Notes under the pieces: model-generated | The model's input: only the letters and a program-made list of their open reading frames with translations | Databases searched by the model: none | Told to the model about the DNA's origin: nothing | From: an archaeon | GTDB lineage: Archaea; EX4484-52; WAPT01 | Assembly (NCBI GenBank): GCA_029258795.1 | Contig: JAPDKB010000005.1 | Span: 1 to 54,041, forward strand | Length of the DNA stretch: 54,041 nucleotides | Direction: 5' to 3' | Position numbers and translations under genes: made by a program | Part shown: positions 678 to 48,160 of the stretch, one piece after another | Layout of the letters: every line of letters starts with the position of its first letter | Numbering within the stretch: the first letter of the stretch is position 1

Positions 678-688
678 CGGTAAAAACA

Positions 689-1645: not shown

Positions 1646-1708
1646 AAGTATCCTATTAACAATAGAAAAAATTAAATAAGTCTTCTAAGGCAGGATGAAC
1701 ATCAGCTT

Positions 1709-4068: not shown

Positions 4069-5381
4069 TCTGAATCCCTCTTATTGTAGCTTACTAGGGA
4101 TTGTATTATAACTTCACACCCCAAAGTCTTCTCAATGTCACCGAACACTAGTTTTTTTAATTTTAATTGTTTTCTCTTGTTTGAAAAATTTTGATCTAAG
4201 CTCTTTAATAGTTCATCAATTAAGCACTCAATTGTAGTACAGATGCGACTTGGTATTATTTCGTTAAGCTCAAAATAAAGTTCACGATCTCGTTCCTTGT
4301 ACATCTTGTAATCAGGGAAGAAATATACTATGGGCTTGTCTAGCAGCAAATAGTCAAATTGTACAGAAGATATATCTGTAATAAGAACATCAGAAGTTAG
4401 GAGGTACGGATATATATCTTCTTCCGATTTGAGATAGATTATGTTTTTGCTTTGATTTGATGTTACATATTCCAGTGTCACCCTTTTTAACATACGATCC
4501 CAAGGGTGAGGTTTAATAATAAATAATGCGTGTAACTTAGAACAAATAGCATCTATTGTCCTTAATTCTTCAAAAGACAAAACACGCCAGTTAGTATCTC
4601 TGAAAGTTGGGAGATAAAATATTAACTTATATCCTTTTGCTTTTTTAGATAGTAACATTTGATAACATTTCTTATCGATACCTATTTCCCATCCTTTAAA
4701 CAACTCTGGACGTAGAAGAAAATCATTTCTAGGATAGTTTCCGACAATGAGTTTATCTTCAGACACCCTGAATGCTGAGGAAAATATCTTTTTATATGCT
4801 TTTGACGGACAGAGTACTTTATCGTATCTCACGAAACGAGGGAAATGAATTAATCGTCTTAGATAAACACTGAATGTCGGATCGTTTTGAGCAAAATATT
4901 GAAGAACTATATCGTTCTTGTTGTCAAATTCGATCTTCTTTATTGGAATACCATGCCAAAGTTGAACTTTCCGTGCCCAAAATGTCAACGCATACACTAT
5001 TCCAAAACCCCTAAGAGACCAATCTAAATTATCGACAATGAGGACTTCCGCCCGAGTTAGCAATATAAATCCTTTAAGTGAATATAAATATGCTGTTAAA
5101 TAACCATTCTTTTTTAAACAATTATATAAGTCCTTATCTGAAGTAACAAATATAACCTTGATTGGAAATTCTGAAGTCTTAGTTTGAATATATAGATAAA
5201 AATATTTTGCATTATCCAAAAATTTTCCTCCATCTCTACCAATTACGATCCACAATCCATTTTCCTTTCTAACAAATAAGGAAAAAAAGACCAATGGATA
5301 AAATATAAGTAATCTCATAAAAATCGACATAACTGATTGTATGGTCTTAATTGACTTAGTAATAGAGTGATTAACTGACAC
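4065..5381 (-). CDS. CDP-glycerol:glycerophosphate transferase family (TagF/TagB-like)
   Basis: QLWHGIPIKK, GNYPRND, YLPTFRD, KPHP and LITDISSVQFDY are the conserved TagF-family motifs. Confidence 0.9.
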   Translation of the reverse strand: MSVNHSITKSIKTIQSVMSIFMRLLIFYPLVFFSLFVRKENGLWIVIGRDGGKFLDNAKYFYLYIQTKTSEFPIKVIFVTSDKDLYNCLKKNGYLTAYLYSLKGFILLTRAEVLIVDNLDWSLRGFGIVYALTFWARKVQLWHGIPIKKIEFDNKNDIVLQYFAQNDPTFSVYLRRLIHFPRFVRYDKVLCPSKAYKKIFSSAFRVSEDKLIVGNYPRNDFLLRPELFKGWEIGIDKKCYQMLLSKKAKGYKLIFYLPTFRDTNWRVLSFEELRTIDAICSKLHALFIIKPHPWDRMLKRVTLEYVTSNQSKNIIYLKSEEDIYPYLLTSDVLITDISSVQFDYLLLDKPIVYFFPDYKMYKERDRELYFELNEIIPSRICTTIECLIDELLKSLDQNFSNKRKQLKLKKLVFGDIEKTLGCEVIIQSLVSYNKRDSE

Positions 5382-5387
5382 TGGGCA

Positions 5388-6956: not shown

Positions 6957-7224
6957 TTTAAACTACCCTAGGTATTTTCTTATTTATCATCCATATACTT
7001 TTAATAATGGTCGTGATAATGACTTATTTTTTTGGTTAAGATAATTAGGACTCTCGTAGAAAATGTGGTTATAGTGGTTTGCCTAAATTCTGAAAATAAA
7101 CACAAAATAAACATAAATTAAATTTCAATCATGTTCATAGGAGAGCATCCCAAATTGAAGAAAAATCAATTAAAAGGCATCACTTCTAAAAATATCACAC
7201 CATACAAAACCACAAGGAGGCGAC

Positions 7225-7790
7225 ATCCCTTAGATACCCATCCTCCATCAAACAGTTTCAAAAAAAGCATTCAAATATAACAAAACATCTTTAAAACTAA
7301 GAATCCTCGCAGTTGTCTTATTCTTGCAGGAGCTGGGAATAAGGAGAATTAAGCAAGATAATAAACAACAGATCAAAAACTGCAATACCATTACTAGATC
7401 TTAAAATTTAGAGAAGATCTAAACTACAGAGCTGAAAGGGAAGAGAGAAAATGCATAGCCAATAGATGGACGAAGATAAGGTTAACAGTGTGGGTATTTT
7501 TATCTATGTTGCTGTGGATATAGACACAAAAAATTGATAGCGACAAAATCCTACATAACAAGAAATTGCCCCAAAATGTTTGATTTTATTAAAACGTGTT
7601 CTGGGTTTTTGTTTTAACAGAGATTTCAAGATAATAACCGATAAGATGCTCCTGCCATGGAGTGGGTTCGCAAGAGGTTGGGAACAAGATGGAAGCATAC
7701 AACTTTTGGGAAGAGAAATTATGTTGAGCATGTATTTACCTTCTCTTGTGGGTGAAGATGTTTATGTTTTTTATTGGAAGTAGTTGAGAA
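7225..7790 (+). pseudogene. Degenerate IS6-family DDE transposase
   Basis: Read across frameshifts: LRILAVVLFLQ.LGIRRI (HTH), RKCIA-ID-TKI (~7447-7478), YVAVDIDTK (7505-7531), IITDKM..PW (7631-7660), TFGKRNYVEHVF (7702-7737). Boundaries approximate. Confidence 0.8.
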
Positions 7791-7834
7791 GGAAGGTTGA
7801 AATTAGAATGATTTCAATCGTCCAAGTTTAAATA

Positions 7835-9376
7835 CTAGCTCATATCTTTTCTCCCAAGAATGGTAACTAATCGATCTAGGTTTATGCCAAGTCTTCTCTC
7901 GATCTTCCTCATTAATTCTATATCTTCCCTATCAACTGCTCTCAAAAGCACGAGAATCGTAACGTACAGTATGAGAAACGCAGCTAAAAACACCAGAGCA
8001 ACAATAATATTCACTCTGAAAAATCCAGAGATGATAAGGTTTATAAGAAAAAGGGAAAACAGACCGGCAACTATCGATTTAATGTATGTGGTTGTCAGCG
8101 GCTGTATTTTTGAAACTGAATAAAGTTTGGTTGAGGCAAGCAGATTAACAAGCAGAAGAGATGTTGCTGAAGCTGTGGCAGCCCCCACCACACCATATCT
8201 TGGTATCAAGACGTAGTTAAGAAGCACGTTTGAGAAAGCACCCATTAAGTTGGAAAACAGAATAAACCTTGTTTCTCCAATGACAACAAGCGTATAACTA
8301 TTCAATCCAAGCATAACATTCACCATGAACGCTGCAGCTAAGATTTGCAGAGCTTTGGAAGCGGCGAGATACTCTTTTCCAAAAAGAAGGTTTATCGTTG
8401 CTTCAGGGAACACGAAGAGCACAGCAAAAAACGGAAAAGCTGCAAAGAACACCCATTTCGTCAACACCTGATATATTCGCCCAATTTCTTTTATTTTCTT
8501 CTTGGAATAAAGAGCAGAGCAAAACGGACCGTAAATAAATGCCACAAGCCCCAAGAATAAACTCAGCTGCTTCGCAACAGGAACCGCAACGTTGTAGACA
8601 CCAACCACCCTATCCCCATAAAAGTAACCCAGCATGAGAGTATCGGTCCATGTCATCACCATGCCCAGAATCGAGCTGATGACAAGCGGGGTTGAGAAGA
8701 ACAGCAGTGTTTTTGCCGTTTTCTTGTTCACCTTAAAAATGGATATTTTTGTTAGATTCTTTGCAATCCGGAAATACGTCAGACTTAAGAAAAGATAGAG
8801 CATCCCAACACCCAAAATAAGAAAATGGATCGGAACATCCATCATCACACATGCGATTATCACCAAAAACAATCCGAAAGGAATTCCGAAGGAAGAAATC
8901 ACAGCATATTCTTTAGCTTTTTCAAAACCCCTCGCAACATTAGCCAGAACCGAAGTTATTGGCATGAAAAAAGCGGCAACAATTCCAAACGTTATCGCTC
9001 TTGAAGCTTCGGGATTGTGCAGCAACACCTCCGCAATTTCATCCCTCAGAATAAACAGAAACGCCGACACCAAAGATGATGTTGCGATAACCACGAATAG
9101 TGCGGAAGAGGCTATCTGACTGATTTTATCCTTTCTATCGCGGTAATATCCTATAAACCTTACCACGCCCTCCCCCAGGCCGAGAGTGGCAAGCACTGTG
9201 GTTATGGAGACTATGGTCAGGAACATTGAATAAACACCATACTCCCCTGGAGTATAATGTCTTGCAAGGATGATTCTGTTCAGGAAGGAGAAGATCTTGC
9301 CGGCAGCAGTACCCACAAGCAAATAAGCAGCTCCTCTTGCAATCTTGCTCAGTCCAACGCTGACCTCATCCTCCAT
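7835..9376 (-). CDS. Wzx/MOP-family oligosaccharide flippase
   Basis: Polytopic membrane protein with ARHYTPGEYG, TDTLMLGY..VGVY and LIPRYGVVGAA motifs. Confidence 0.9.
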   Translation of the reverse strand: MEDEVSVGLSKIARGAAYLLVGTAAGKIFSFLNRIILARHYTPGEYGVYSMFLTIVSITTVLATLGLGEGVVRFIGYYRDRKDKISQIASSALFVVIATSSLVSAFLFILRDEIAEVLLHNPEASRAITFGIVAAFFMPITSVLANVARGFEKAKEYAVISSFGIPFGLFLVIIACVMMDVPIHFLILGVGMLYLFLSLTYFRIAKNLTKISIFKVNKKTAKTLLFFSTPLVISSILGMVMTWTDTLMLGYFYGDRVVGVYNVAVPVAKQLSLFLGLVAFIYGPFCSALYSKKKIKEIGRIYQVLTKWVFFAAFPFFAVLFVFPEATINLLFGKEYLAASKALQILAAAFMVNVMLGLNSYTLVVIGETRFILFSNLMGAFSNVLLNYVLIPRYGVVGAATASATSLLLVNLLASTKLYSVSKIQPLTTTYIKSIVAGLFSLFLINLIISGFFRVNIIVALVFLAAFLILYVTILVLLRAVDREDIELMRKIERRLGINLDRLVTILGRKDMS

Positions 9377-31145: not shown

Positions 31146-33593
31146 ATGGAAAAGCTCCTTGCTCAACTTCTCCATGTGGATTACGTGGTGGAGGACGATA
31201 AACCAGTCATAAGGATGTTGATGAGCGATGAAAAGAAAAGGAAGGTTGTTGTGCTTGACGACACGTTCGAGCCCTATTTCTATGCTATCCCTGCGGGAAC
31301 CACAAATCTTGATGAACTGGCAGAGAAAATCTTGAACACGAAATTGCCGGATTCTGAAGGAGTCATCAGACCAAAAAGAGTGGAGACCACAACAAAAATT
31401 GTGGGGGTTGAGGAAAGAACAGTGCTAAAGATCGTGTGCTTCCTCCCATCTCATGTCCCGAAGCTTAGAGAAGTAGTTGCCATGCTTAATGGGGTTGAAA
31501 CGATAAGAGAGTTCGACATTCTTTTCCATAGAAGGTACATGATAGACCGCGGAATTGAGCCGATGGACTGGTATGAGGTGGAAGGCAATACCATAAGTTA
31601 CGATGATTATCCATGTGATCTCGCCATCAAACTAAATAACATGAAGCGGCTTTACAGGGCTGACGAAATCTTCAGCATGGCGAGTTTTGATGTTGAGAGT
31701 GTGATGGAAAAGAATGAGATGAAGTTAATCATGGCGGGGATGTATTTCAATGATGGTAGAGCCAGAATAGCCACAGGCATTGATGTGGATGGAAGGGAGT
31801 TCGTGGAAAGGGTGAGCGGGGAGAGAGGGATAATAGAGTGGTTTGCAAGAACGCTGAAGGAGGAAAAACCACACTTCCTAATAACTTATAACGGAGATGC
31901 TTTTGATCTGAAGTTAATAAAGGAAAGAGCATCCAAACTAAATGTAGATCTTAAATTTGGCAAAAACACTTTTTTGCGATTTAAAAGAAGGGGTAGAACG
32001 AGTCAGGCAGAGATAGAGGGTGTGGTGCATATAGACCTGTATCCGTTCGTTTCCACCATCATGGCATCAAGCTTGAACACGGAAGTTTTTACCCTGGAAG
32101 CGGTGTGTCAGGAGATTCTGGGAGAGGGTAAGTATGAAATCACATGGGAGGAGATAGAGCACAGCTGGAAAACAAAGACGAATCTGGAAAAGATTGTGGA
32201 TTACAATTATAGGGATGTGGAGCTCACCATGAAACTGGCGAAAGCGCTGCTCCCAAACGTGTTTTCTCTTGCTTCATTAACCTACATGACTCCTTTTGAA
32301 GTTGCCAGAGCAAGCTACAGCCAGCTGGTCGAGAACTTTGCGATAAGAAAAGCCTACAAGATGAATTATGTTGTTCCAAACAAACCCACCGTGGAAGAGA
32401 TGGATATAAGGAGGCAGGAGGAGAGCTATGAAGGAGCCATAGTCATAGAGCCAAAGCCCGGCTTACATGAGAACATAGCTGTGTTTGACTTCCGATCTCT
32501 GTATCCATCCATAATAATAACTCACAACATAGACCCCTACACCATAAACTGTTCCTGCTGTAAGGCGGAGGAGGCGTATCGTGTTCCCAACAAACCGTAC
32601 TGGTTCTGCAAGAAGAAGAGAGGATTCATACCCGCCATACTGCAGGAGTTGATAGAGAAGAGGACGGAGATAAAGAAGAAGATGAAGGAGACGAAGGATG
32701 AGCTTCTCAAAAAGGTGCTCGACTCACGGCAGCAGGCAATGAAAACCGTTGCCAACGCTTTCTACGGGTATCTGGCCTTTGTGGGCTCACGCTTTTATGA
32801 CAAGAGGTGTGCCGAATCCGTCACCGCCTTTGGCAGGCATTACATAACGATGATTGCTGAAATGGCAAAACAGCACGGATTTGAGGTGATATATGGCGAT
32901 ACGGATTCCATATTCCTGAAGGTGGGTGAAAAGAGCAAGGAGGATGTTATGCAATTTTTAAACGAGGTTAACTCGAAGCTTCCCGGCATAATGGAGCTGG
33001 AGTTTGAAGGGCTTTACAAAAGGGGGTTGTTCGTCAAAAGGAAGAGCGGGGAGGGTGGAGCAAAGAAAAGGTACGCTTTAATTGATTATGAGGGCAACAT
33101 GGTGATAAGGGGTTTTGAAAGGGTGAGGCGTGACTGGTCGAAGCTTGCCAGAGAGACGCAGGAAAAAACCCTCTATTATGTTTTGAACGGGGAAGTGGAG
33201 AAGGCAGTAGAATATGTTAAGAGTGTCATAGAAAGATTGAAGAAAGGTGAGGTGGATAAGGAAGAGCTGTGCATCTACACAACCATAACCAGGGGGCTCG
33301 ATTCTTACGAGCAAATTGGTCCGCATGTGGCTGCTGCAAAAAAAGCAGTTGCCAGAGGGCTTGAGATAAAACCGGGAGAGACGATAAAATACATAATAAC
33401 GAGAGGGAGCGGTAGCATATCTGATAGGGCCGAGCTATCTGTTTTTGCGGAGAGTTATGATCCGGAATATTACATCCACCACCAGGTTCTTCCCGCTGCG
33501 ATGCGCGTGCTGGGTGTGCTGGGCTACACGGAAGACATGATACTTTCGGGCACGAAACAGACAGGGCTTTTCCAGTTCACGAAGAAATCATAA
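31146..33593 (+). CDS. polB: Family B DNA polymerase
   Basis: Exonuclease FDVE, YNGDAFD, YNYRD; polymerase DFRSLYPS, KTVANAFYGY, YGDTDS; no intein. Confidence 0.96.
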   Translation: MEKLLAQLLHVDYVVEDDKPVIRMLMSDEKKRKVVVLDDTFEPYFYAIPAGTTNLDELAEKILNTKLPDSEGVIRPKRVETTTKIVGVEERTVLKIVCFLPSHVPKLREVVAMLNGVETIREFDILFHRRYMIDRGIEPMDWYEVEGNTISYDDYPCDLAIKLNNMKRLYRADEIFSMASFDVESVMEKNEMKLIMAGMYFNDGRARIATGIDVDGREFVERVSGERGIIEWFARTLKEEKPHFLITYNGDAFDLKLIKERASKLNVDLKFGKNTFLRFKRRGRTSQAEIEGVVHIDLYPFVSTIMASSLNTEVFTLEAVCQEILGEGKYEITWEEIEHSWKTKTNLEKIVDYNYRDVELTMKLAKALLPNVFSLASLTYMTPFEVARASYSQLVENFAIRKAYKMNYVVPNKPTVEEMDIRRQEESYEGAIVIEPKPGLHENIAVFDFRSLYPSIIITHNIDPYTINCSCCKAEEAYRVPNKPYWFCKKKRGFIPAILQELIEKRTEIKKKMKETKDELLKKVLDSRQQAMKTVANAFYGYLAFVGSRFYDKRCAESVTAFGRHYITMIAEMAKQHGFEVIYGDTDSIFLKVGEKSKEDVMQFLNEVNSKLPGIMELEFEGLYKRGLFVKRKSGEGGAKKRYALIDYEGNMVIRGFERVRRDWSKLARETQEKTLYYVLNGEVEKAVEYVKSVIERLKKGEVDKEELCIYTTITRGLDSYEQIGPHVAAAKKAVARGLEIKPGETIKYIITRGSGSISDRAELSVFAESYDPEYYIHHQVLPAAMRVLGVLGYTEDMILSGTKQTGLFQFTKKS

Positions 33594-35459
33594 AATTTGG
33601 AGCATTTTGAGCAGAACGCTTCTCATAACCCTTCTGACCTTTCCGAGAGGTGTTGTATCGTAAATCAGCGCAGAGCTCATACGATTATGCGAACTGAGGG
33701 ATGAACTGTTTACATAATTTTCTTTAATTTCTCTCACATATTTATGCGAACTCGCCGGTTGTTTTGCGGAGAAGTTCAGCAGAAACACGGGTTTTTCCAA
33801 CACACAGTTCTTGTCGTGGTACCACAACTTCACTTTCAAAGTACACGGCCTGATCTCATCAACTTCTTTGACAACATTCATAAGGGTAATGTTCACAACG
33901 CTTTGGTTCTCCACCACCACATCTATTTCGTTACCTTTCCACCCACCTTCGGTCGCGAGCTTTCCCCCGCATATTATGTAGGAGTATGCTGAAAGATTTA
34001 TGCTACGGTTCATTTTGTTGTGAAGCACAAGAAACGTGCTGATATTGGAGTTGCTCAACGCAATTTGTGGTGTGGTGACGTTTTCAACCTCAACGAATGC
34101 ACACGACACTTTCCTCTTCTTCTCACGAGTTATGGGTTGGGCTCCTTGCGTCTGGCACTGGCATGAAGACCTCACGATCTTTCTACATGAGCTTGCAGCA
34201 CCGTCCTTAATCGTGAGTTCTGCAATATCTGCATCACCCCACGAAGCATCAGCCCACAAGATGTATTTTCCACCTTTCAACCTGCCGTCACAATTCGGTT
34301 TGAGCTGTACGGGCACAACCACCACATACTCCGCGTTTTTCTCCATTAACTGCACCGATAGTTTTTCGGACGCATACCTCCCGTTTTCTGGATTCTTCAC
34401 GTAAACGTATATTGTCCTCTTATCGTTATCTCCTCTATTGGCTCTTAGTTTGACTCGCACAACGTCACCAAAATTAAGCTCAGTTCTGCTCACACTTTCA
34501 ATTTTAACAAATGACGGCATATCCACATCTCCATTCATCTTTGCATCTTTCCTTCTGACTATCAGCATTAATGATGACTTGTTGTCTGGCAGGATGGTGG
34601 TGTTGGATGTCGTGTTCACCATCATCGCTTCCACAAAAAACACCTCACCCTCAATACCCGGGGGTGTCCAGCTGCGCTCGGAGGTGCAGATTTTTGAATA
34701 TGTGGCTTTAGCTTTCAGCGTTGTGCTGTACGCTTTCTTAACCTCTCTTCCATAAAGGTCTGAGATCCAATAAAGCACCGTTATGTTCATATCCCTTCCA
34801 AACGTTGAGGTGTTGGGATACGCGCATATCCTGTAGTTTATTGTTTCGGATTCGTTGCAGATGAAGCAGGAAATGTTCTCTATTTTTAATTCAAGCGCTA
34901 TCATGCTTGAATTTTCACTCCTGTTGCACGCGTTTTCAGCTAGAGGAGTTGGTAAAGCGACAATCCAGCTGCCATTGCAGAGCTGGATGGAATAACCCTC
35001 CACATCCATCTCAGCTGTGTAATTCACGGAATCAACAACGCTTCCGTTAGCGAGCGAGAGGGTTATGTTCATGCCATCATTGTTCAGACCTTTTCCGCAG
35101 ATATAACTTGTGTTTGTGTGGAAAATGTATGTTGTGTTGTTTGTGTTGAACTTTTCAAGAACGTCAGAGCCAGAGCCGCCATCAACAACAAGAGCATAGG
35201 TGTAAGGTGGAAGAAGAGTTGTGTTTGTGGTTATGGTGTTGTTGGCATCTTTTGAGATATATCCTGGAATGAGGGAATAATTGCATAGTAAGTGGGAGGA
35301 TATGTTAACGCTTGTGTTTTCATCATTGAAAAGCTCAATATATTCAGAATAGTGGTCATCACCCGCGGGGTCAAACATAACTTCAGTTATTTTTAGCTGG
35401 TGGGCTTGTTTTGGGAAAACCGCGAACAACAAAAGAATTAAAACAAGCCATTTTTTCAT
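33588..35459 (-). CDS. Secreted lamin-tail-domain protein
   Basis: Signal peptide then KITEVMFDPAG..EYIELFN...PTP..N (LTD); rich in sequons. Confidence 0.82.
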   Translation of the reverse strand: MKKWLVLILLLFAVFPKQAHQLKITEVMFDPAGDDHYSEYIELFNDENTSVNISSHLLCNYSLIPGYISKDANNTITTNTTLLPPYTYALVVDGGSGSDVLEKFNTNNTTYIFHTNTSYICGKGLNNDGMNITLSLANGSVVDSVNYTAEMDVEGYSIQLCNGSWIVALPTPLAENACNRSENSSMIALELKIENISCFICNESETINYRICAYPNTSTFGRDMNITVLYWISDLYGREVKKAYSTTLKAKATYSKICTSERSWTPPGIEGEVFFVEAMMVNTTSNTTILPDNKSSLMLIVRRKDAKMNGDVDMPSFVKIESVSRTELNFGDVVRVKLRANRGDNDKRTIYVYVKNPENGRYASEKLSVQLMEKNAEYVVVVPVQLKPNCDGRLKGGKYILWADASWGDADIAELTIKDGAASSCRKIVRSSCQCQTQGAQPITREKKRKVSCAFVEVENVTTPQIALSNSNISTFLVLHNKMNRSINLSAYSYIICGGKLATEGGWKGNEIDVVVENQSVVNITLMNVVKEVDEIRPCTLKVKLWYHDKNCVLEKPVFLLNFSAKQPASSHKYVREIKENYVNSSSLSSHNRMSSALIYDTTPLGKVRRVMRSVLLKMLQIL

Positions 35460-35512: not shown

Positions 35513-36400
35513 ATGATTTCGGAAGAAGCGATTGGAAAGTACATTAGGGCTGGAAACGTGGCAAGAGAAACTCTCGAGTTATCGAAAAAACTGGTTAAAC
35601 CAGAAGCAAGTGTGTTTGATGTGGTTACCGAGCTCGAGGAGTTCATAAAGAGCAAAGGGTGTGAGCTGGCCTTTCCTGTCAATCTCTCGATCGATAATGC
35701 TGCAGCTCATGATACCGCAGATATTATGGATGGTAGAACGATACATGAAGATGCAGTTGTTAAGGTGGATGTTGGAGTGCATGTTGATGGATATATTGCG
35801 GATAGCGCAATAACAATAGACCTAAGCAACAGGTATAATGACATGGTCAAAGCTGCGGAAGAAGCGCTGGAGGAGGCGTTGAAGCTTTTCACCCCTGAAA
35901 GGAAGGTGGTTGAGATAAGCAGAACGATACAGGAGGTTATAGAGAGTCATGGCTTTAAGCCGGTGGTTAACCTCACAGGACACAAGCTTGAGAGGTATGT
36001 GCTCCACGGAAATGTCTCTATCCCGAATGTTGAGTACGATATTCCTTACGAGCTGAAGGAGGGGGATGTGTTTGCAGTTGAGCCCTTCGTTACCAATGGT
36101 TCTGGCAAGGTTAAGGAGGGAGGAGAAGCAAAAATCTTCGCGTTTTTGAAGAAAGTGAGATGCAGGGGTGATGTGGCAAGAAAAATCCTTGAGTTTGGAG
36201 AGGGGAGGAAGGGCTTGCCTTTCTCTCTTAGATGGATGTTTGAGGAGAAGAAACCCTCCGTAGTTCTTGCCCTTAGAGAGCTGGTGAACAGCAACGCTCT
36301 ATACGATTACCGCGTTCTTAAGGATGTGGAGGGAAGCATAGTTACTCAGGCAGAGCACAGCGTGGTGGTTGGAGACAAACCATTAGTTTACACAAAATAG
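35513..36400 (+). CDS. map: Methionine aminopeptidase type II
   Basis: AFPVN..AAH, KVDVGVHVDGYIADSA, NLTGH, AVEPF, QAEHS. Confidence 0.96.
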   Translation: MISEEAIGKYIRAGNVARETLELSKKLVKPEASVFDVVTELEEFIKSKGCELAFPVNLSIDNAAAHDTADIMDGRTIHEDAVVKVDVGVHVDGYIADSAITIDLSNRYNDMVKAAEEALEEALKLFTPERKVVEISRTIQEVIESHGFKPVVNLTGHKLERYVLHGNVSIPNVEYDIPYELKEGDVFAVEPFVTNGSGKVKEGGEAKIFAFLKKVRCRGDVARKILEFGEGRKGLPFSLRWMFEEKKPSVVLALRELVNSNALYDYRVLKDVEGSIVTQAEHSVVVGDKPLVYTK

Positions 36401-36473
36401 TTGTGCTAATTTCGTACTTGAAACTTCGAAAAAATAAACAAAATTTTTTGAAATAGGAACTGGTGGTTCGTTT

Positions 36474-37532
36474 TTAGATAATCGCATTTTTCCTTCTTCT
36501 TTTTCCGAACGAGTTGATCATCACCGCCAGCAGTAACATGAGGCCCACTATCACGAGAGCTTTTGCCAGGTTGGTTAAGGTCAACTCGTTTACAAGTATG
36601 AGGTTTGTGGTGACATCAGTTAGGAATGCGAAGGCAACTATCATTAGTTCAACCCCAAGCAAGCTGCGGACATTTTTTATTTTCTTGTCCAGATATGCAC
36701 CCACACACCATGCCATGGCGCTTATTCCGAAAGCGTATACTGAGGTATTGACGAACAGCACCACTGTATTTAATATACCCTCTGGCTTTACCGCCGTGAC
36801 TTTGGAAGCACCTATTATCAATCCGGCAATGAAAAACGTGATGGATGTTAGGTAAAGGAACAGGGAGAAGCGCATTTTGGAAGCTGATTCTGAAAGAGAG
36901 TGAAAAACACGAAATACAGTGTCTTCAAGCTGAAAACCCTTGAGGAACAGGTATATTCCTATGAACCCGATTATAAGACGGATGGCTGCCGAACCGAAAA
37001 AAGCGTAAAATATCAGGGCTATAGCGGGCACTCCTAAGAAAAGGCGGGAGTAGCGTGGATTATTTATCATGTTCTTTATGAAATTGTAAATCACAAAATA
37101 GGTGCTTTCTAACTTAACAGCCTGATTGACCACTATTCTCTCAACATAAACATTTGGCACCTTCCTACTTATGAGAGGTATAACTTGTTCATCGCTTGCC
37201 CCATCCGAAACGAAAACTATCTCATCAGCATCAAACCTTTTCAGCACTCTATCTAGCTGATCGCTTATTTTTCTATCGGATTCTATTCCCATACTCTCAC
37301 TTCCAGTTATAACTGCAACCTCAACCTTCTCACCCTTTCTTCTTAACTCATCATAAATTTGCACCGCTCTGAACATCGCATTCACATCAGAATCGGAAGG
37401 ATCTGCTAACCCTAACATTTGGGTGGCTTTCAAAACCTCGTTCTTACCTATTATCGGAGCTCTCACATTCGCCTTTACACCCAGATCATCATCCCGATCC
37501 ACACACAAAACCAGCACTTTCTTTTTAGCCAT
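36474..37532 (-). CDS. DUF373 family membrane protein
   Basis: VLCVDRDDDLG, DSDVN and SDGASDE; TM C-terminal half. Confidence 0.88.
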   Translation of the reverse strand: MAKKKVLVLCVDRDDDLGVKANVRAPIIGKNEVLKATQMLGLADPSDSDVNAMFRAVQIYDELRRKGEKVEVAVITGSESMGIESDRKISDQLDRVLKRFDADEIVFVSDGASDEQVIPLISRKVPNVYVERIVVNQAVKLESTYFVIYNFIKNMINNPRYSRLFLGVPAIALIFYAFFGSAAIRLIIGFIGIYLFLKGFQLEDTVFRVFHSLSESASKMRFSLFLYLTSITFFIAGLIIGASKVTAVKPEGILNTVVLFVNTSVYAFGISAMAWCVGAYLDKKIKNVRSLLGVELMIVAFAFLTDVTTNLILVNELTLTNLAKALVIVGLMLLLAVMINSFGKRRRKNAII

Positions 37533-38450
37533 GATGATTTTATCGAACTTTAACAATAAAAAGTTGGCTGATGTGTTGTCTTAACTCTCACATTTAGGAT
37601 ATTACTGTTTCTTTTATTTGGGTCAGCTTGTCGTTTTTTGTTCTATTCTTTCATTTGAATACATTTCTCATTTTTGGCCCACCTTAGTGGAGTCATGGCT
37701 TACTTTGTGTTATGATCCCATATTCTTTTCCAGCATGCGTTTTCTCTCACAAACAGCGCAATTTTTGGAATTATTTCGAGGAACTATTTCCCATTTATTA
37801 CATTTAACTCTCATATTCTGACAAAATTTTCACAAATTTTACTGAAATTTATATTTTCAAGAAATCAAAATATATTGAGATATTGATATGATATGCTATC
37901 AGGATTTAAAAATTTTGGCATGCAAAAAATCAGCATACATAAAAAAAGTTATATAATATATTTTTTCAAGTTTTTATTTTTTATTATATTTTTAACACAT
38001 GATTTATTTAAAAATATTTTTTTGAAATTAATTTATTTGATTTATTTTTTGTAGAATATAATTCAATAATATGGAAGAATTTCCCATTTTCCTGAGAGTT
38101 TCGGACGGATTTTTGATCCCCTTTATTAGCCCTAAAAAGTACCATACTTCCAAAATTATGTTATTTGAGTGCCGGGAACCTATATTATGAGCAAAAAATC
38201 ATAGAAGATTTTCATATTCTCTAAAAAAGTGCATGAGGTGTTGTGTGTAGTTGGGACTAATTTCCCATTTATTCTCCAAAATGTTCTGAAAAACCCTCAC
38301 ACTTTTTTATTATATTTTGGCCTTTTACCTATATTACGGGAGACATAATCGACCTAGCTTCACCATTCCCGGAGTTCTATTCTTTTCTAAAAAAGTATAC
38401 AATATACAACAATACTATATAATATATCAAAAATCGATATACGCAAAACA

Positions 38451-38478
38451 AGTTCGCATAAGGTTCATTATGCGAACT
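38451..38478. other. dif-like Xer recombination site (11-6-11 palindrome)
   Basis: AGTTCGCATAA-GGTTCA-TTATGCGAACT: perfect 11-bp inverted arms with inner CATAA/TTATG, intergenic, xerA about 8.8 kb away. Confidence 0.8.
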
Positions 38479-38643
38479 GAAGGGTATGGATGGAAAGTGT
38501 AGAGAAAAGAATATTTTGTATAATATAAAATAAAAAATATTTTCCTAAAAATATGAAATGAAAGTGGGAAGAATTGACAGGAAATATCGTGAATTCTCTT
38601 CCAAATTTTACAATTTTATATATTTTGAAATCTAATAAATATC

Positions 38644-39069
38644 ATGTTTGATGATATTTTCGGTTCTCCAAAAAAATCCAGAAAAAAGAAAAATCCGTTT
38701 GATTTTGATTTAAGTTTATTTCCTTCTCAAGAAGAAAAGAAAAATAAACGAGGATACATCTATAAGGATTACAGAAATAAGTTATGGGAAAAACAAAAAG
38801 GGAAATGTGCTAGATGTAAGAAGAAATTAGACCCTCATAATTATCACATAGATCATAAGAAACCCGTCGCACTGGGAGGCAAAACAACATTATCCAATCT
38901 TCAACTTCTATGTCCCCTATGCCATATGAAGAAAACTGCAGAGGATAGACGAAAAATATCTCAAAATAAGAAACGACAGAAGAAATCTAGCGCAAAAGAC
39001 CCATTTACCGTTGATCTTTTCGGCTCTTCTTCAAGATCTAGAAAGAAAGATCCTTTTAGTTTGTGGTAA
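38644..39069 (+). CDS. HNH endonuclease (zinc-binding, McrA-like core)
   Basis: CARC, HIDHKKP..LGG, NLQLLCPLCHMKKT. Confidence 0.9.
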   Translation: MFDDIFGSPKKSRKKKNPFDFDLSLFPSQEEKKNKRGYIYKDYRNKLWEKQKGKCARCKKKLDPHNYHIDHKKPVALGGKTTLSNLQLLCPLCHMKKTAEDRRKISQNKKRQKKSSAKDPFTVDLFGSSSRSRKKDPFSLW

Positions 39070-39071
39070 GT

Positions 39072-40049
39072 CTATAATGTATGTTCCTGAATGTTCAACT
39101 TTTTGCCTAACTCTTCAAAACTCATGACGTCAGTTTTCCAATCTATATCATATCTTAATGCTACCATTTCCTTCCCAAGCTTCTCAAGTGCGCGCTTCGT
39201 GAAATCTCGTGCAATCAAAACTCCTTTTAAACACTCATTACCTAGCTCAGAAACATAATACTTTAGTTGTTTGAAATCATTTTCTGAAGCTTTTCCAAGT
39301 TTGACTTCTATCACAATTTTCCTTGAAACTCCTATAGGTACTGCTTCTTTGATCAATATATCTACATGTCCTTCTGGCAGTGCTTTTTCACTTAAGACTT
39401 CAAGGTTGTTTATATCCAATTCCTTTATTCCACAAACATCCATAAGATTTTCCAAATTAGAATTTTTTGATAAGTATTTCTTTATTAGTGCTTGAAGAAT
39501 AACTTCCTTAAATGAAAATACTTCAGGTGGATTTTCATTTTCTCTCCTTAAACAGAATTTTGGTTTAAAAGTTTCGTATTTCGGCATTTCCAAAGTCTCT
39601 ACATTTTCTTTAATGGTCCTACCTACTTGAGAAACATATTGAAGCGTGGTTTGATCTGCTTGAAAATGTGTTTTCCTATAACCTCCACGCAAAAGCAAAT
39701 TTTCAGCTACATAAGCAAATTCGTTTCTTATGAGGAGCTCTTCAAACTGCCTTACTGGTTCAAGATACAATCTAAAAGGAAACCAGTATGTTCTATTTGA
39801 TGGTTTAAATGTTATCGGTTTCCATGGTGGGAGATCTTTAGCGTCTCGTATTGCTTCTTTTTTCTTAACCCTATAAAGATTATGCGCTCTTGCGCCATAA
39901 AGAAATGAAACAAAATCCCCTTCGTTTATTTCTACATATGCCCATGCGCCATTAATACTATTTGTGAACCCTGCCAGAGCGAATTTTTTACATAGTTCTA
40001 GGTTTTCTCTATTTGACACTGATATTAAAAAATAGTTTGGCTTGTTCAT
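39072..40049 (-). CDS. EVE/PUA-like domain + PD-(D/E)XK (NucS/Mrr-like) endonuclease
   Basis: N-terminal YFLISVSNRENL...EGDFVSFLY is EVE-like; C-terminal E..GHVDIL..VIEVK..QLKYY. Confidence 0.7.
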   Translation of the reverse strand: MNKPNYFLISVSNRENLELCKKFALAGFTNSINGAWAYVEINEGDFVSFLYGARAHNLYRVKKKEAIRDAKDLPPWKPITFKPSNRTYWFPFRLYLEPVRQFEELLIRNEFAYVAENLLLRGGYRKTHFQADQTTLQYVSQVGRTIKENVETLEMPKYETFKPKFCLRRENENPPEVFSFKEVILQALIKKYLSKNSNLENLMDVCGIKELDINNLEVLSEKALPEGHVDILIKEAVPIGVSRKIVIEVKLGKASENDFKQLKYYVSELGNECLKGVLIARDFTKRALEKLGKEMVALRYDIDWKTDVMSFEELGKKLNIQEHTL

Positions 40050-40102
40050 AATTAAGTAAAGCTAATAGAAATCTTATAAATATCACTCCTCTTGATCTAT
40101 TC

Positions 40103-40285
40103 ATGATGAAATATGGTGTTTTATACTGCGTTTGGGATAGTGAAAACGTTATAAAGTTCTCTGAAATTATCGAAGCAGAAAATCTAAGGGAAGCAATCGA
40201 AAAAACAGATAGAAATCTGGAATTAAATGTTGTGATCCCACTTACAAAAGCGAACAAAGAACACCTTAAAAGATTACTCGAATAA
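40103..40285 (+). CDS. Small hypothetical protein
   Basis: 60-aa ORF with protein-like composition filling the gap. Confidence 0.5.
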   Translation: MMKYGVLYCVWDSENVIKFSEIIEAENLREAIEKTDRNLELNVVIPLTKANKEHLKRLLE

Positions 40286-40300
40286 AACAAGAAGCGTTAT

Positions 40301-40516
40301 TCATCCTACTTTCAAAACCTCAAACCCATAACCACTTTCTTTAACAAATTCTATAAATTCAACATCTTGCTCCACAAACCTTTTCCATGCTTCTTCATCA
40401 TTTTCAGCATTGCCTATCCATCTTACCGTTATGTCGTTCCTTTCTATTGTTTCATTCTTGTTGTTTAAATACTCTATCGCATGCGGCGGAACACAAAGGA
40501 CCATGAACTTTGCCAT
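40301..40516 (-). CDS. Small hypothetical protein
   Basis: MAKFMVLC... preceded by TATA-like TTTAAAAAGG. Confidence 0.55.
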   Translation of the reverse strand: MAKFMVLCVPPHAIEYLNNKNETIERNDITVRWIGNAENDEEAWKRFVEQDVEFIEFVKESGYGFEVLKVG

Positions 40517-40725
40517 GAATTTTACTTCCTTTTCAAACCTTTTTAAACTATCTCGTATTGGCTTGCCGAAACACAAAACATACAACTTTGTATAATGCCT
40601 CTACAAAATTACTGACAAAGTAAGGACACCTAGTTGCCACATGCCACACACCGCATGTTAGAAATCGATCTAATGTTAGTACAAACTACTAACTGTAGAA
40701 GGGAAATATTAGCCAAATTAAAAAC

Positions 40726-41067
40726 CTATAATTTCCTTATTCTGATCTTATCTGGTCTAACAATTATTAAACCTTCTTTGTCTTTTAGCTTATCAAACGA
40801 TTTTTCGAGCAAGCTTATTATCCCTTGAGGCGTTAACTTTTTCGGTCTTAGGATTATAATGGTGCCTTTTCTGTATTTGAAATACAGAACTCCAAAATCA
40901 AGATCAAGCGTAATTAATTTGTAGTTATTTTTTAATGCGAATCTATACAGTTTGTCATCAGAGGCTCCTTTCAAGCCAACTTCGTAAGCTTTTACTACTT
41001 CATATCCTTTCGTTTCAAACCAGCTTTTCACACTTAAAGGAACATTGTCATCCAAGAGCAATTTCAT
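40726..41067 (-). CDS. DUF5615 / Mut7-C-like PIN-domain toxin
   Basis: MKLLLDDN, SD and ITLDLDFG motifs. Confidence 0.88.
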   Translation of the reverse strand: MKLLLDDNVPLSVKSWFETKGYEVVKAYEVGLKGASDDKLYRFALKNNYKLITLDLDFGVLYFKYRKGTIIILRPKKLTPQGIISLLEKSFDKLKDKEGLIIVRPDKIRIRKL

Positions 41068-41269
41068 AAAGCTCCTCTCTACTCATAACTTTGGACGCGT
41101 ACCTTATAGCATCCCTTATATCCTCTTCCGTCAGCTCAGGATATTCCTTCAAAATATCCTTCACACTCATACCTTCTGCAAGTAGCTGTAGCACCAAATG
41201 AACTGGAATCCTGGTGCCTTTAATTACAGGTTTACCTCTCAATACCTTTGGGTTTATTTCTATGGGCAT
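41048..41269 (-). CDS. DUF433 antitoxin
   Basis: GKPVIKGTRIPV...EYPELTEEDIRDAIRY; overlaps the PIN gene. Confidence 0.92.
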   Translation of the reverse strand: MPIEINPKVLRGKPVIKGTRIPVHLVLQLLAEGMSVKDILKEYPELTEEDIRDAIRYASKVMSREELYEIALG

Positions 41270-41427
41270 AATACAATCACCTAACCTAAACTTATTTCAT
41301 CTCAAACCTTTTTAAAGTATCATGCACACACAACCTCCAGCTTAGGCACAAACAACGGTAGCCTTGCTTAAGTGATTTTTACCTGTTAGTCCAATACGTT
41401 TTTAAATTCCAAGATGAATTAAAAAAT

Positions 41428-41637
41428 ATGGAGGCTGAAATTGAAAAAAGAATTTTAAAGGAACTTTCGGAAATAAAGAAAGAGCTGAAGATTATGAAAA
41501 AACAGCTCATGGACTTGGATATTTTCTTGACAGAGGAAGAGCACAAGCTGGTTAATGAGAGCATAAAACACGAAAAGGAAGGAAAATTAATCACGTTGGA
41601 CAGCGTTCTCAAAAAACTCGGTGTAGAGGATGTTTGA
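41428..41637 (+). CDS. Putative RelB-type antitoxin
   Basis: LTEEE...EGKLITLDSVLKKLG; overlaps the start of a RelE-like frame. Confidence 0.7.
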   Translation: MEAEIEKRILKELSEIKKELKIMKKQLMDLDIFLTEEEHKLVNESIKHEKEGKLITLDSVLKKLGVEDV

Positions 41638-41725
41638 AGTACTTTTGGACAAGCAACCAATAAAATTCCTTGAAAAAACCGAGAAGGAAGTTGCCAAGCG
41701 GATTCTTATCAAGCTCAAAGCTCTC
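41630..41725 (+). pseudogene. Truncated RelE/ParE toxin
   Basis: MFEVLLDKQPIKFLEKTEKEVAKRILIKLKAL then loses similarity; the catalytic YR.RVGDYR part is absent. Confidence 0.7.
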
Positions 41726-41803
41726 TTTTGCTTTTTTATCACTCATGTAAATATACAAACTATCGTTTTCGTAATCATAATCAAACATTATCTTCTTTTC
41801 CAT
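41706..41803 (-). pseudogene. Truncated DUF2283 protein
   Basis: AGGTGAGG SD, then MEKKIMFDYDYENDSLYIY..AKESFELD, running into relE antisense sequence. Confidence 0.65.
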
Positions 41804-42039
41804 AACCTCACCTTCTTTTGCATTTTTGAAGTTCCTTTTTTCAGAAATTTTATCAAATAATTCTTTAACTTCGTTTTGAAATTGTTTGAGATCCATAATC
41901 ACAGTTATTCGAGATCTTTTATAAACTTGGTGTTCCCGCGATTACTCATGATATTTTGATGACCTTACCGAAAAATAAAAAAGGATTTTCAAACACACCC
42001 GCATTTAACTATAAATGTCTCAAAAACCCAGGAATATTA

Positions 42040-42694
42040 ATGATAAAAGGTATAATATTTGATCTCTACGGCACGCTTGCTTACAAACCAAAATCTGTAG
42101 ATCCTGAAAAGTTTTGCGCTTTTCTAAGGAAAAATGGATACGATGTATACCCTCAAGAATATCAGACAACTTACAAATTTGTATTTTTTTGTGGAATATC
42201 CGAAGGGCCATATAAATTCCTACGAGGGTTTTTATCGCAAGGTTCTTGAACTTCTGGGTTTTATTCCAGATAAGGACATTCTAGTCAAGATAGTAAATTA
42301 TGTGAAGAAGCGGGACGTGTTCCGTCTTTACCCAAACGTAAAGTTCATTAAAGGCCTGAATGTTCACAAAGCAATTCTCACTACCACACCAATATTCATG
42401 TTTAACTATCTCCATCTTGACGAATTTGATCCAATATTTACTGGAAAAGAGATAGGAAGAGCTAAACCACATCCAAATGGATGGTTGAAAATCCTCAATA
42501 TATGGAAATTAAGGCCTTCAGAGGTTCTCATGGTTGGGGATGAAGTGGATGGAGATATAATTCTTGCAAGAAAATTGGGAATAAAAACAGCTTTCATCAG
42601 CAGAGAAGGACAGAAATGCGATAAAGCAGATTATAACATCTCATCCCTTAAGGAAATTTTGGAAATATTGGGTAATGAGTATGCGAGCGAATGA
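42040..42694 (+). pseudogene. HAD-IA hydrolase split by a +1 frameshift in a T7 run
   Basis: IIFDLYGTL in one frame; KPHP and MVGDEVDGD in the next. Removing one T at 42184-42190 restores KFVFFVEYPK. Confidence 0.85.
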
Positions 42695-42762
42695 AGCGAA
42701 TAAAGAATAAGCTCGGGGTTAATTCCTATAATTTTATGTACTTGCGTGATGAATTGTTCATC

Positions 42763-43212
42763 ATGAAAAAATATTTGGTTGTTGGTGGAGCAGTTATTTT
42801 TAATGCATTATTAATTCATCTATCTCTTGCTTATATAATCCCCTCAGTATTCGGTTATACTTCCTCTGCTTTCGCCGTTTATTTAATCCTGGCAATAATA
42901 GGATATATCCTTGGTAGGATCTATACTCTATACTTTTCCAGAAAATTACAGCTAGATAAACGAGGGTGGTTAATTATCGGGATTTTAATGGCGTCTTTAA
43001 TATTTGTTCAATTTGTTTTATCATTTTGGTATGTTGAACAACAGACTCGACAGATAGAAACTGTTCTTCAACAGGCTGGAGAGCTCACAGGTTTTCAAAT
43101 AGAACTCTATAGGACGCCTCTCAGCCCATTTCTAATGATATTGAGTTTCCTGGTTCCGTTTGTATTTCCTTTTGTTAGAGCCTATTTGAATATCAGTTCA
43201 ATTCGTACATAG
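42763..43212 (+). CDS. Hypothetical 4-TM membrane protein
   Basis: Four hydrophobic segments. Confidence 0.65.
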   Translation: MKKYLVVGGAVIFNALLIHLSLAYIIPSVFGYTSSAFAVYLILAIIGYILGRIYTLYFSRKLQLDKRGWLIIGILMASLIFVQFVLSFWYVEQQTRQIETVLQQAGELTGFQIELYRTPLSPFLMILSFLVPFVFPFVRAYLNISSIRT

Positions 43213-43287
43213 CCCTTCTACTAACCAAAGATACCTAGAGATGGATCGCAATTTAATTTATGTATCAAAACTTAATGTGTGTTTGGT

Positions 43288-43878
43288 ATGACCCAACTAA
43301 AAATAATCACCACCAATAGGAACAAGTTTAAAGAACTGAGCAGAGCTTTGGAAGGAATTGCTGAAGTAAAATGGGTCAATTTACAAATTCCAGAATCAAG
43401 GGATCTGGATGTTGTGGATGTTTGTAAAAATAAGCTATGGTTGGCACATAAGATAACAGGAGAAAGAAACATCGTGGTGGAGGATAGGGGTTTTTACATA
43501 AACGAACTAAATGGGTTTCCCGGCTCAATGGTTAATCTTGTACTGCAAACTATTGGCATCGAGAGAATCATCAAGCTTGTGGAAAAGGACAAGAAATGCT
43601 ATTTCAAGTACGCATTGGGATATCTTGATGAGAACAACAAGACGCATTTTTTCACAAGTGTGGAGCAAGGCATGTTAGCTGAAAATGTAAGAGGGAACAA
43701 TGATAGAGGATGGAGTCCTTTAATGAACGTGTTTATAAGTCCTATGTTCCCAAAGAAAACCTTGGCTGAGCTGAATGATGAAGAATGGAGAAAATACAAG
43801 GAAGTATTCCACAAGAACAGCCACATAAGCAAGTTTGTTGAGTTCATTTTATCAGACAGGCAGGCATCTTCCTGTTAA
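43288..43878 (+). CDS. Ham1/ITPase-family NTP pyrophosphatase (divergent)
   Basis: ITTNRNK, VEDRG..LNGFPG, KTLAEL, SH. Confidence 0.85.
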   Translation: MTQLKIITTNRNKFKELSRALEGIAEVKWVNLQIPESRDLDVVDVCKNKLWLAHKITGERNIVVEDRGFYINELNGFPGSMVNLVLQTIGIERIIKLVEKDKKCYFKYALGYLDENNKTHFFTSVEQGMLAENVRGNNDRGWSPLMNVFISPMFPKKTLAELNDEEWRKYKEVFHKNSHISKFVEFILSDRQASSC

Positions 43879-44083
43879 CCCACAAATACACCACAACAAG
43901 TATCGCAAAACAAGCCCTATGTAGGTGTGGAGCACACTCCACTGGTGTTTCCTCCATCCCTAAAAAACTTCAGTACTTGCTTCCCGGTCCGGAGGGAGCA
44001 AAGTAAACCGTGATTCCACCCAAAGCAATAATAAGAAAGGTCACCACAGGCAAAAATATCGATTACAAGCAGACCCTTCTCAT
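43866..44083 (-). pseudogene. Decayed DUF4405-like membrane protein gene
   Basis: Read across frameshifts and one stop: LLVIDIF/PVVTFLIIALGGITVYFAPSGPGSKY*SFLGME/KHQWSVLHTYIGLV/AILVVVYLWVN. Confidence 0.6.
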
Positions 44084-44105
44084 GTTCGTGAAGTTCCACC
44101 ATCCT

Positions 44106-46501: not shown

Positions 46502-46605
46502 TGGAGCCCGGGGTGGGACTCGAACCCACGACCACGAGTTCTCCAGCACGTGGCTACGAGATTCACGCTACAAGACTCGCGCTCTACCAACTGAGCTACC
46601 CGGGC
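46502..46605 (-). tRNA. tRNA-Thr(UGU) with a 28-nt intron at 37/38
   Basis: GCCCGGG/CCCGGGC acceptor stem, CGAGT/ACTCG anticodon stem, CT-TGT-A loop, TTCGAGT T-loop, U73, encoded CCA; intron 46541-46568. Confidence 0.93.
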
Positions 46606-47244: not shown

Positions 47245-47320
47245 GAAAAAGGATTATTTTTTAACTCCTATATAAAGATTTGGATAATGTTTTTATTCTC
47301 CAAAAACCACATCCTACATT

Positions 47321-48160
47321 ATGCGAACTTCGAAATGGATTGAGATGCTTGAAGCTGAGCTGAAACTTCGCGGCTTTACTGAAAACACGATCTCAAGTTA
47401 CACAATACTCGTGAGAAATTTTCTGGAAGACATGAACAAAGACCCAAAAAGGATTAGTGAGGGAGATGTCAAAGCTTACATATCTAAAAAGATGGTGGAT
47501 GAGGGGTTAAGCCCAAGAAGTGTGGTATGCATTATAGCTGCATTACGTTTCTTTTTTGAGGAGGTGGTGGGTAGGGATGATGTGGTGAAGATAAAGCCGC
47601 CGAAGCAGGATAAGAAGCTTCCAACTGTGCTGACAAAGGAGGAGGTGCGCTTGTTGATAGATGCTGCTGAAAATTTGAAGCACAGAGCGCTTGTCGAGCT
47701 CCTGTATTCTTCTGGTTTGAGAATAAGCGAATGTCTTAACCTGAGAGTTAAGGACTTGGACTTGGATAGGATGGTGGGCGTAGTAAGAGCAGGTAAAGGG
47801 AGAAAAGACAGGATGTTCATACTGTCCAGAAGGGCAGCTGAAGATGTGAGGCAGCTCATCCTGATGGAAAATAAAGGGAGTGAGGACTTCATCTTCACCG
47901 GGAAAAATAAAAGAAAGAGGATGACTTCTAGGGCAGCGCAAAAAATAATATCGAAACTTGCGGAAAAAGCAGGAATAACGAAAAATGTAACGCCCCATGT
48001 ATTGAGGCACAGCTTTGCCACACATTTGCTGGAAGGAGGAGTTGACATAAGAAAGATTCAGGAGCTGCTCGGTCATGCGAATCTTAACACCACGCAGATA
48101 TACACCAAAGTTTCTATGGAAGAGCTCAGGAAAATTAGAAGTCCGCTGGACGAAATTTGA
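47321..48160 (+). CDS. xerA: Tyrosine recombinase XerA (XerC/D family)
   Basis: SAM-like N-domain; GLRISE, GKGRKDR, HVLRHSFATH, LGH and TTQIY; all catalytic residues present. Confidence 0.9.
   Translation: MRTSKWIEMLEAELKLRGFTENTISSYTILVRNFLEDMNKDPKRISEGDVKAYISKKMVDEGLSPRSVVCIIAALRFFFEEVVGRDDVVKIKPPKQDKKLPTVLTKEEVRLLIDAAENLKHRALVELLYSSGLRISECLNLRVKDLDLDRMVGVVRAGKGRKDRMFILSRRAAEDVRQLILMENKGSEDFIFTGKNKRKRMTSRAAQKIISKLAEKAGITKNVTPHVLRHSFATHLLEGGVDIRKIQELLGHANLNTTQIYTKVSMEELRKIRSPLDEI

Follow-up and report, generated by a model that had tools for sequence, protein, structure and literature searches.

The 28-bp palindrome at positions 38451..38478 of the window, the whole 54,041-nt stretch of DNA that was analysed, is very probably the dif site of this DPANN archaeon, as judged by sequence comparison. 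Observed directly are the site, its uniqueness and conservation, its linkage to and co-occurrence with xerA, and polar words that converge on it; together with the 11-6-11 geometry, the intergenic position and a cognate XerA encoded in the genome, these features support the dif reading under the in silico criteria described for archaeal dif sites (Cortez 2010, PMC2958812). Counting against it are the 27 of 42 related genomes without a match, a terminus placement that is only partly supported, and the wide and apparently mobile occurrence of the same core elsewhere. The original prediction had proposed a chromosome dimer resolution site in a lineage with no described dif. Conservation, linkage, co-occurrence and polar words all lend support to the first part, and literature searches combining DPANN or Aenigmarchaeota with dif or XerA agree with the second. 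These searches, which left most subscription papers outside their reach, found no such description, and a 2021 review of archaeal tyrosine recombinases makes no mention of DPANN or Nanoarchae (PMC8371274). What is encoded here seems to be an ordinary Xer system, apparently undescribed before in this lineage. It offers a concrete candidate pair of dif and XerA in an uncultured DPANN phylum whose genomes measure about 1 Mb, and the site is a landmark of the probable terminus that can help in ordering contigs and finding origins in metagenome-assembled genomes (MAGs).

The site and its probable recombinase

The site is composed of a left arm AGTTCGCATAA (38451-38461), a spacer GGTTCA (38462-38467) and a right arm TTATGCGAACT (38468-38478). 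The two arms are reverse-complementary at 11 of 11 positions, forming a perfect inverted repeat, and the spacer differs from its own reverse complement TGAACC, so that the 28-bp site has a direction; the perfect arms and asymmetric 6-bp spacer first noted in this DNA are thus exactly as claimed. The inner ATAA-N6-TTAT is also present (...CATAA-GGTTCA-TTATG...). By our arithmetic, base composition would yield about 0.3 perfect 11-6-11 inverted repeats per genome and about 0.015 per window, and only two are found genome-wide, namely this site and an AT-rich repeat on C9. The window is contig C7 of an assembly (genome G000) of 1,168,407 bases in 23 contigs that is 96% complete, and the 28-bp site has one copy in the whole of it. 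When up to three mismatches are allowed, the site pattern matches once in the 54,041-nt window and in none of 100 dinucleotide shuffles, while a degenerate search for a second site returned nine other matches of at least 15/22, compared with 3-17 in 20 shuffles. Within this 96%-complete assembly, the chromosome therefore carries a single copy, and this copy lies in non-coding DNA.

The site is located in an AT-rich intergenic region of 1,087 bases (37557..38643) between a minus-strand DUF373 gene on its left (36474-37556) and a plus-strand HNH-endonuclease ORF on its right (38644-39069), both recognised by ORF and domain searches. Neither the site nor the intergenic region is assigned to a strand, and no Rfam family reached its gathering score in the latter. 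A sigma-70 promoter scan of the region was set aside, the host being an archaeon. The window's contig also carries family-B DNA polymerase (PolB), ribosomal protein L10 (P0 type), KaiC and other archaeal genes, among which PolB and ribosomal protein L10 identify the contig as chromosomal. To the right of the site begins a low-GC stretch (0.32-0.34; 38479-44100) with toxin-antitoxin-like and nuclease genes, containing the HNH endonuclease ORF, the gene of a protein of 325 aa whose C-terminal nuclease domain is of the NucS type, and small DUF5615 and DUF2283 genes; the site and xerA are separated by unrelated genes. A second low-GC block (0.33-0.35), made up of consecutive minus-strand ORFs, occupies positions 1-8000 of the window. 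In addition, an Rfam tRNA of 101 bases (62 bits) is found at 46505-46605 on the minus strand; it is not reported by ARAGORN and probably contains an intron.

The xerA gene (47321..48160, plus strand) lies 8.8 kb from the site and encodes a protein of 279 aa that matches Pfam Phage_integrase (PF00589) with an E-value of 1.9e-48 and possesses a SAM-like N-terminal domain. This protein scores 256.4 bits against the NCBIfam XerA equivalog NF040815, whose cutoff is 220, and stays below the NCBIfam cutoffs for XerC and XerD. Its closest solved structures are P. abyssi XerA (4a8e, 5.3e-56), followed by T. acidophilum XerA (5hxy). The motifs GLR, GKG, HxLRH, LGH and IYT, aligned with 4a8e, are all present, with GLR at residues 132-134 and IYT at 260-262; in P. 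abyssi XerA the catalytic residues are numbered R135 and Y261 (Serre 2013, PMC3646895). On this evidence, the chromosome encodes its own cognate recombinase of the Xer family, and the catalytic residues of this enzyme are intact. PF00589 has one match in the genome, which is xerA itself, the sole tyrosine recombinase gene, and a single XerA-type enzyme fits identical arms, as had been anticipated when the palindrome was first described.

By analogy with the XerA proteins of P. abyssi and T. acidophilum, we infer XerA binding, the positions of cleavage and a role in dimer resolution at this site. One XerA monomer would bind each of the identical 11-bp arms, and two XerA-bound sites on a chromosome dimer would then synapse as a tetramer. 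The catalytic tyrosines are predicted to cleave where the 6-bp spacer GGTTCA meets the arms, and two sequential pairs of strand exchanges would resolve the dimer to monomers without an FtsK partner.

Conservation among relatives and linkage to xerA

Phylum-level and order-level searches returned the same 42 genomes, so that in this set the lineage constitutes a small single-order phylum. With the 22 arm positions and up to three mismatches, 6 of 41 genomes were matched, and an 18-base core, TTCGCATAA-N6-TTATGCGAA, with up to two mismatches was found in 13 of 42, compared with 1 of 42 for the reversed control. One 2-mismatch match, in G011, was rejected as a chance occurrence: it lies inside a 629-aa ORF and shows no synteny to G004. 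The search of related genomes that had been suggested as a check also used the inner core CG[C/T]ATAA-N6-TTAT[A/G]CG at zero mismatches: 15 of the 42 genomes contain it, each a single time (control 3/42), and they span six of the eight families (f1, f2, f3, f5, f7 and f8). The inner core has no match in the other 27 genomes, most of which are incomplete MAGs and which include all 16 genomes of f6. Between the window's genome and the same-genus genome G001, 21 of 22 arm positions agree and 3 of 6 spacer positions do; the arms are kept among relatives, while spacer and flanks diverge. Changes between families are symmetric on both arms, with T replaced by G in f3 (GTCGCATAA/TTATGCGAC) and C by T in f5 (CGTATAA/TTATACG), the pattern to be anticipated where a single protein recognises the two arms.

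The site is also linked to the recombinase gene. In the sister families f3 and f5, five f3 genomes carry it approximately 70-100 bases ahead of xerA and three f5 genomes approximately 30-110 bases ahead of the host-clade xerA, and in three genomes of f1 and f2 it is upstream of xerA on the same contig at a greater distance (8.8 kb in G000, ~6.9 kb in G001 and ~9.7 kb in G003); in four genomes (G008, G014, G015 and G019) the two are on separate contigs. A XerA above the NCBIfam cutoff is encoded by 15 of the 15 site-bearing genomes, versus 11 of the 27 without the site (Fisher p 1.3e-4, uncorrected for the relatedness of the genomes). Another genome of the same genus, G002, which has neither the site nor a good xerA, was set aside: its best match to the neighbouring KaiC has only 41% identity, versus 92% in G001, so that the region as a whole was probably missed in that assembly and nothing follows from the absence.

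The surroundings of the site are shared with G001. Gene order agrees between this genome and the window over a tract that takes in the ribosomal genes, xerA, the NucS-like gene and the site, the sole indel being at 40.6-44.1 kb. This synteny indicates that the neighbourhood is not a recent insertion. The block missing from G001 at 40.6-44.1 kb includes HAD hydrolase and Ham1 genes. Contigs of several MAGs (G001:C15, G008:C141, G019:C93, and G015:C96 and C40) stop 200-550 bases from the site, and such ends may reflect population variation or elements beside dif. Public contigs from four runs, aligned on 36500-40500, have no joint at the spacer. Of the joints listed, two would delete the site, and both are flagged as unreliable for having just 20-21 matching letters on their shorter side; the run that is the probable source gave no aligned contig. 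A variant of ~90% similarity in X2 and X4 keeps the site with the last base alone differing, its flanks diverging from 23 nt to the left. This variant is consistent with conservation of the site and is silent on recombination.

These same data bear on whether the palindrome could be the operator of a transcription factor or a terminator hairpin, with no connection to XerA, which is a highly improbable alternative. The perfect dyad does stand in a promoter-rich intergenic region, its single strand folds at -10.4 kcal/mol (z = -5.2), and a scan of the minus strand scores it as a hairpin of terminator type with TGTTTTG after it, a flank common to G001; the nearest minus-strand gene ends 594 bases upstream of the palindrome, with a plus-strand ORF in between. 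However, the hairpin with TGTTTTG is confined to G000 and G001, and the other families have no T-tract. The arms are kept as sequence and not as mere complementarity, with one copy per genome, and depending on the lineage the site is upstream of genes, downstream of them or kilobases away. An operator in particular is unlikely because the neighbouring genes change between families while the linkage to xerA persists.

A tree of 40 XerA-like proteins places the window's XerA in a clade whose branching tracks family taxonomy, while the f3 proteins form a separate long-branched clade. The nearest named relatives of the window's protein are from DPANN MAGs, first Aenigmatarchaeota at 53% identity and then Woese- and Pacearchaeota at ~40-45%. 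At 16 distant DPANN XerA loci (Woese-, Pace-, Aenigmatarchaeota and others), no 11-6-11 repeat of at least 10/11 was found within ~900 bp of xerA. A third clade of the tree, absent from G000, mixes families and has a different palindrome directly after the gene, (A/G)TTATACGGA-ATAAAT-TCCGTATAA(C/T), approximately 10-70 bases past the gene end. Members include G036:C58, G040:C136, G016:C85, G004:C25 (2.8-3.6 kb), G018:C40 and G006:C1. Because the spacer ATAAAT is kept across families and families are mixed on the tree, this clade is probably a mobile module, and it looks horizontally transferred.

The symmetric core of the site is itself widespread. In 596 Gb of genomes it was found in at least 119 stretches, from many bacteria and several archaeal groups, where by our arithmetic ~9 would be expected by chance. 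It further occurs in 19 IMG/VR viral contigs, most of ~22-44 kb, and matches often have palindromic outer positions too. Identical 28-mers including the spacer (L091, L110, L136 and L173) come from two contigs of a Prevotella genome and from other MAGs, one of them labelled as an archaeon from horse feces. These matches suggest that mobile elements may carry or use this Xer-type site, and the presence of identical, mobile-looking 28-mers in unrelated organisms means that sequence alone is no proof of a chromosomal dif. The perfect symmetry emphasised in the original prediction is real but less special than that prediction suggested, given how widely bacteria and other archaea share the symmetric core.

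It is accordingly worth weighing whether the palindrome belongs to a mobile module made up of XerA and its recombination site, or is an att site of integrating elements, and not the dimer-resolution site of the host. In f3 and f5 the recombinase gene sits beside its own site, a build known from mobile elements and large plasmids (PMC5357621), the family-mixing XerA clade with its own palindrome looks horizontally transferred, and the core recurs in viral contigs, with identical 28-mers in the Prevotella genome and an unrelated MAG. Close to the site itself, the low-GC (0.32) stretch with nuclease and toxin-antitoxin-like genes starts immediately to the right, and several relatives' contigs stop 200-550 bases away. 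Such an origin is nevertheless improbable for the copy in the window: its contig is chromosomal, and its XerA belongs to the taxonomy-tracking clade and is the only tyrosine recombinase of the genome. No attL/attR pair is present, as the nine matches of at least 15/22 fall within the shuffle range of 3-17 and no second match with three or fewer mismatches exists. The lack of a second site above shuffle level, combined with the retention of the flanking genes within the genus, makes an att site of an integrated element unlikely. A dif can, moreover, itself serve as an integration target, so that this explanation partly overlaps with the preferred reading of a host dif.

Terminus position and polar half-sites

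Position relative to strand skew had been named as a check on the prediction, and the outcome is mixed. Plain GC skew is too noisy to place a terminus on four site-bearing contigs, including the window's contig. Words containing GTTG or GTTC are reported to converge on archaeal dif, and GTTG is the published core of the archaeal polar sequences (ASPS) (PMC2958812; PMC5357621). The word GTTGAG does flip at the site or close to it in two families, represented by G003 and G000. On G003:C1 its strand ratio is 37:14 to the left of the site and 6:15 to the right, and the best switch, at 80.5-86.0 kb, encloses the site (82.9 kb); in the window the ratio is 29:14 to the left and 3:10 to the right, with the best switch at 36.25-37.0 kb (36250..37000, no strand assigned), 1.5-2.2 kb left of the site. 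Inward-pointing copies in the window number 41 of 56 when counted from the best interval and 39 of 56 from the site. The flip is independent of gene strand, the ORF strands being mixed, and about 4% of null windows from other contigs of G000 (n=137) reach the same one-sided level. A further word, TGTTGAGA(A), is polar on G003:C1 and on the window's contig and switches strand at or near the site, with TGTTGAGA facing the site in 15 of 15 copies on G003:C1; together with GTTGAG it is a candidate for the ASPS-like words of the phylum. In contrast to these flips, neither GC skew nor GTTGAG flips on G004:C25 (f3), where the site adjoins xerA, and for all-tetramer skew on G003:C1 the strongest switch comes at ~100 kb, a distance of 17 kb from the site. 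Placement of the site at the replication terminus is therefore only partly supported, given the noisy GC skew, the fragmented assembly, the missing flip in G004:C25 and the displaced tetramer switch.

The arm of the site also occurs on its own. The 11-mer arm has eight copies in G000, where 0.3-0.5 are expected under Markov orders 1-5; at up to one mismatch there are 27 matches versus 20 for the control, which is no enrichment. On site-bearing sequences, 28 of the 30 exact arm-core 8-mers outside the site face it: 16/16 on G003:C1, 4/4 on G019:C93, 2/2 on G015:C96, 2/3 in G000, 1/2 in G001, and one each in G010, G008 and G004. Four 3-kb f3 windows and G015:C40 contain no arm-core 8-mers outside the site. 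On the 126-kb contig G003:C1, where 3,853 8-mers have at least 10 copies, none is more polar than a pair of overlapping arm words, whose switch interval (82.7-83.2 kb) includes the site. This contig, ~14% of its genome, holds 14 of the 21 arm matches of G003 at up to one mismatch; of the matches other than the site's own arms, 12 lie on its 126 kb versus 7 on the remaining ~774 kb. On the f2 contigs G003:C1, G019:C93 and G015:C96, each side of the site has 1-3 half-sites within ~200-750 bases.

The window contains three extra exact arm copies, and the polar effect in its own genome is weak. Two of these copies face the site: they are plus-strand occurrences of TTATGCGAACT at 33685..33695 and 33742..33752, 57 bp apart and in the same orientation, in the 3' part of an LTD-domain gene (33588-35459, minus strand). 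The third is a perfect plus-strand copy of the right arm at 47319..47329 that covers the start codon of xerA (TT ATG CGA ACT) and faces away from the site. The same 11-mer lies over the xerA ATG in G001 (G001:C15:71545-71555) with diverged flanks on both sides, and these two copies are the only half-sites that face away; an arm copy at the xerA start is absent from the other families examined. By our reading, a TATA-like TTTTTATT stands 23 bases upstream of the xerA ATG in G000. The copy over the start codon is a candidate for a XerA autoregulatory half-site, or for a relic of an older xerA-adjacent dif, and XerA bound there could block a leaderless transcript. In G001, four same-orientation arm-core copies occur within ~450 bases (G001:C13:13642-14092, L089) in different reading frames; this region is not homologous to the LTD gene that holds the 33685/33742 pair.

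Two possible causes of the half-site pattern were rejected. Relics of element integration at dif would be expected in the opposite orientation, with the exception of the copy at the xerA start, and a coding or gene-strand cause is at odds with the mixed ORF strands over the matches and the different frames of the clustered copies in G001. A more speculative idea, less likely than not, is that the XerA arm doubles as a polar word of chromosome architecture, so that copies around dif, read by XerA or a partner, would mark and orient the terminus domain, with the start-codon copy in the window's genus serving XerA in repression of its own leaderless transcript. If this were so, one motif would join roles that are split elsewhere between KOPS/ASPS and XerD/XDS.

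The half-sites likewise favour, to some degree, the explanation that XerA binds the site with a main role other than recombination, either in chromosome organisation (SMC unloading or a domain boundary, in the manner of XerD/XDS) or in regulation. Single arm-like half-sites cluster on dif-bearing contigs and face the site, a half-site covers the xerA start codon in G000 and G001, the genome encodes SMC and a ScpA-like protein, and both SMC unloading through XerD/XDS and a boundary at archaeal dif have been described (PMC11840125, PMC11894783). Nonetheless, a full 11-6-11 site paired with a XerA whose catalytic residues are intact is an exact recombination substrate, and the dif-associated boundary of T. 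kodakarensis needed neither XerA nor dif (PMC11840125). A role of this kind to the exclusion of recombination is hence unlikely, and organising or regulatory roles could coexist with the dimer resolution proposed for the site. The converging half-sites and the half-site at the xerA start suggest that XerA, in an organism that presumably lacks FtsK, may do more than recombine DNA, with an organising or self-regulating function as well; they are the part of the system that could be of specialist interest.

Comparison with known Xer systems

The closest counterparts are the archaeal XerA/dif systems of P. abyssi, T. kodakarensis, T. acidophilum and the Sulfolobales, with which the present system shares a lone XerA, a 28-bp 11-6-11 site that is intergenic, conserved and single-copy, the inner TAA-N6-TTA, and convergence of words containing GTTG (PMC2958812, PMC8371274). 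Among archaeal dif sites reported so far, no feature is more conserved than the inner TAA-N6-TTA (PMC11840125). By our count, the site in its better orientation is identical at 17 of 28 positions to the ChIP-confirmed T. kodakarensis dif printed in the same source. It differs from these systems in having its own arm sequence, identical instead of imperfect arms, extra half-sites that face the site, and a host in a DPANN lineage.

Xer genes with adjoining sites are also known elsewhere. A xerA/dif module is present in some archaea (PMC5357621), and dif-like sites have been reported upstream of the xerA operon in H. volcanii and H. salinarum (PMC11840125). The f3 and f5 sites directly upstream of xerA, and the f1 and f2 sites at 7-10 kb, are similar to these xerA-linked sites of haloarchaea and to the bacterial XerS/difSL arrangement. 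However, in the window a distance of 8.8 kb, occupied by unrelated genes, separates the gene from the site, and in difSL the central region measures 11 bp and the arms are unequal.

The bacterial XerCD system resembles the present one in its arm sequence. The claim that the left arm AGTTCGCATAA is identical to the E. coli XerC arm at 9 of 11 positions stands, by our count, against the E. coli K12 dif tabulated in PMC2731167, and identity rises to 10 of 11 for the XerC arms of Nitrosococcus oceani and Erwinia carotovora in that table. Unlike bacterial dif, both arms here are of the XerC type and no XerD-type arm TTATGTTAAAT is present; likewise, one recombinase takes the place of two, and it scores as XerA and below the XerC and XerD cutoffs. 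Archaea are described as being without an FtsK homologue (PMC8371274).

The half-sites find their nearest parallels in two bacterial or archaeal word systems. As with the XDS of B. subtilis, at which XerD unloads SMC in the terminus (PMC11840125, PMC11894783), sequences resembling a dif arm are scattered near dif and concentrated on the dif-bearing contig, most clearly in G003, G019 and G015; as with KOPS and ASPS, their orientation converges on dif. In contrast to both, the polar word here is the predicted binding arm of the recombinase itself.
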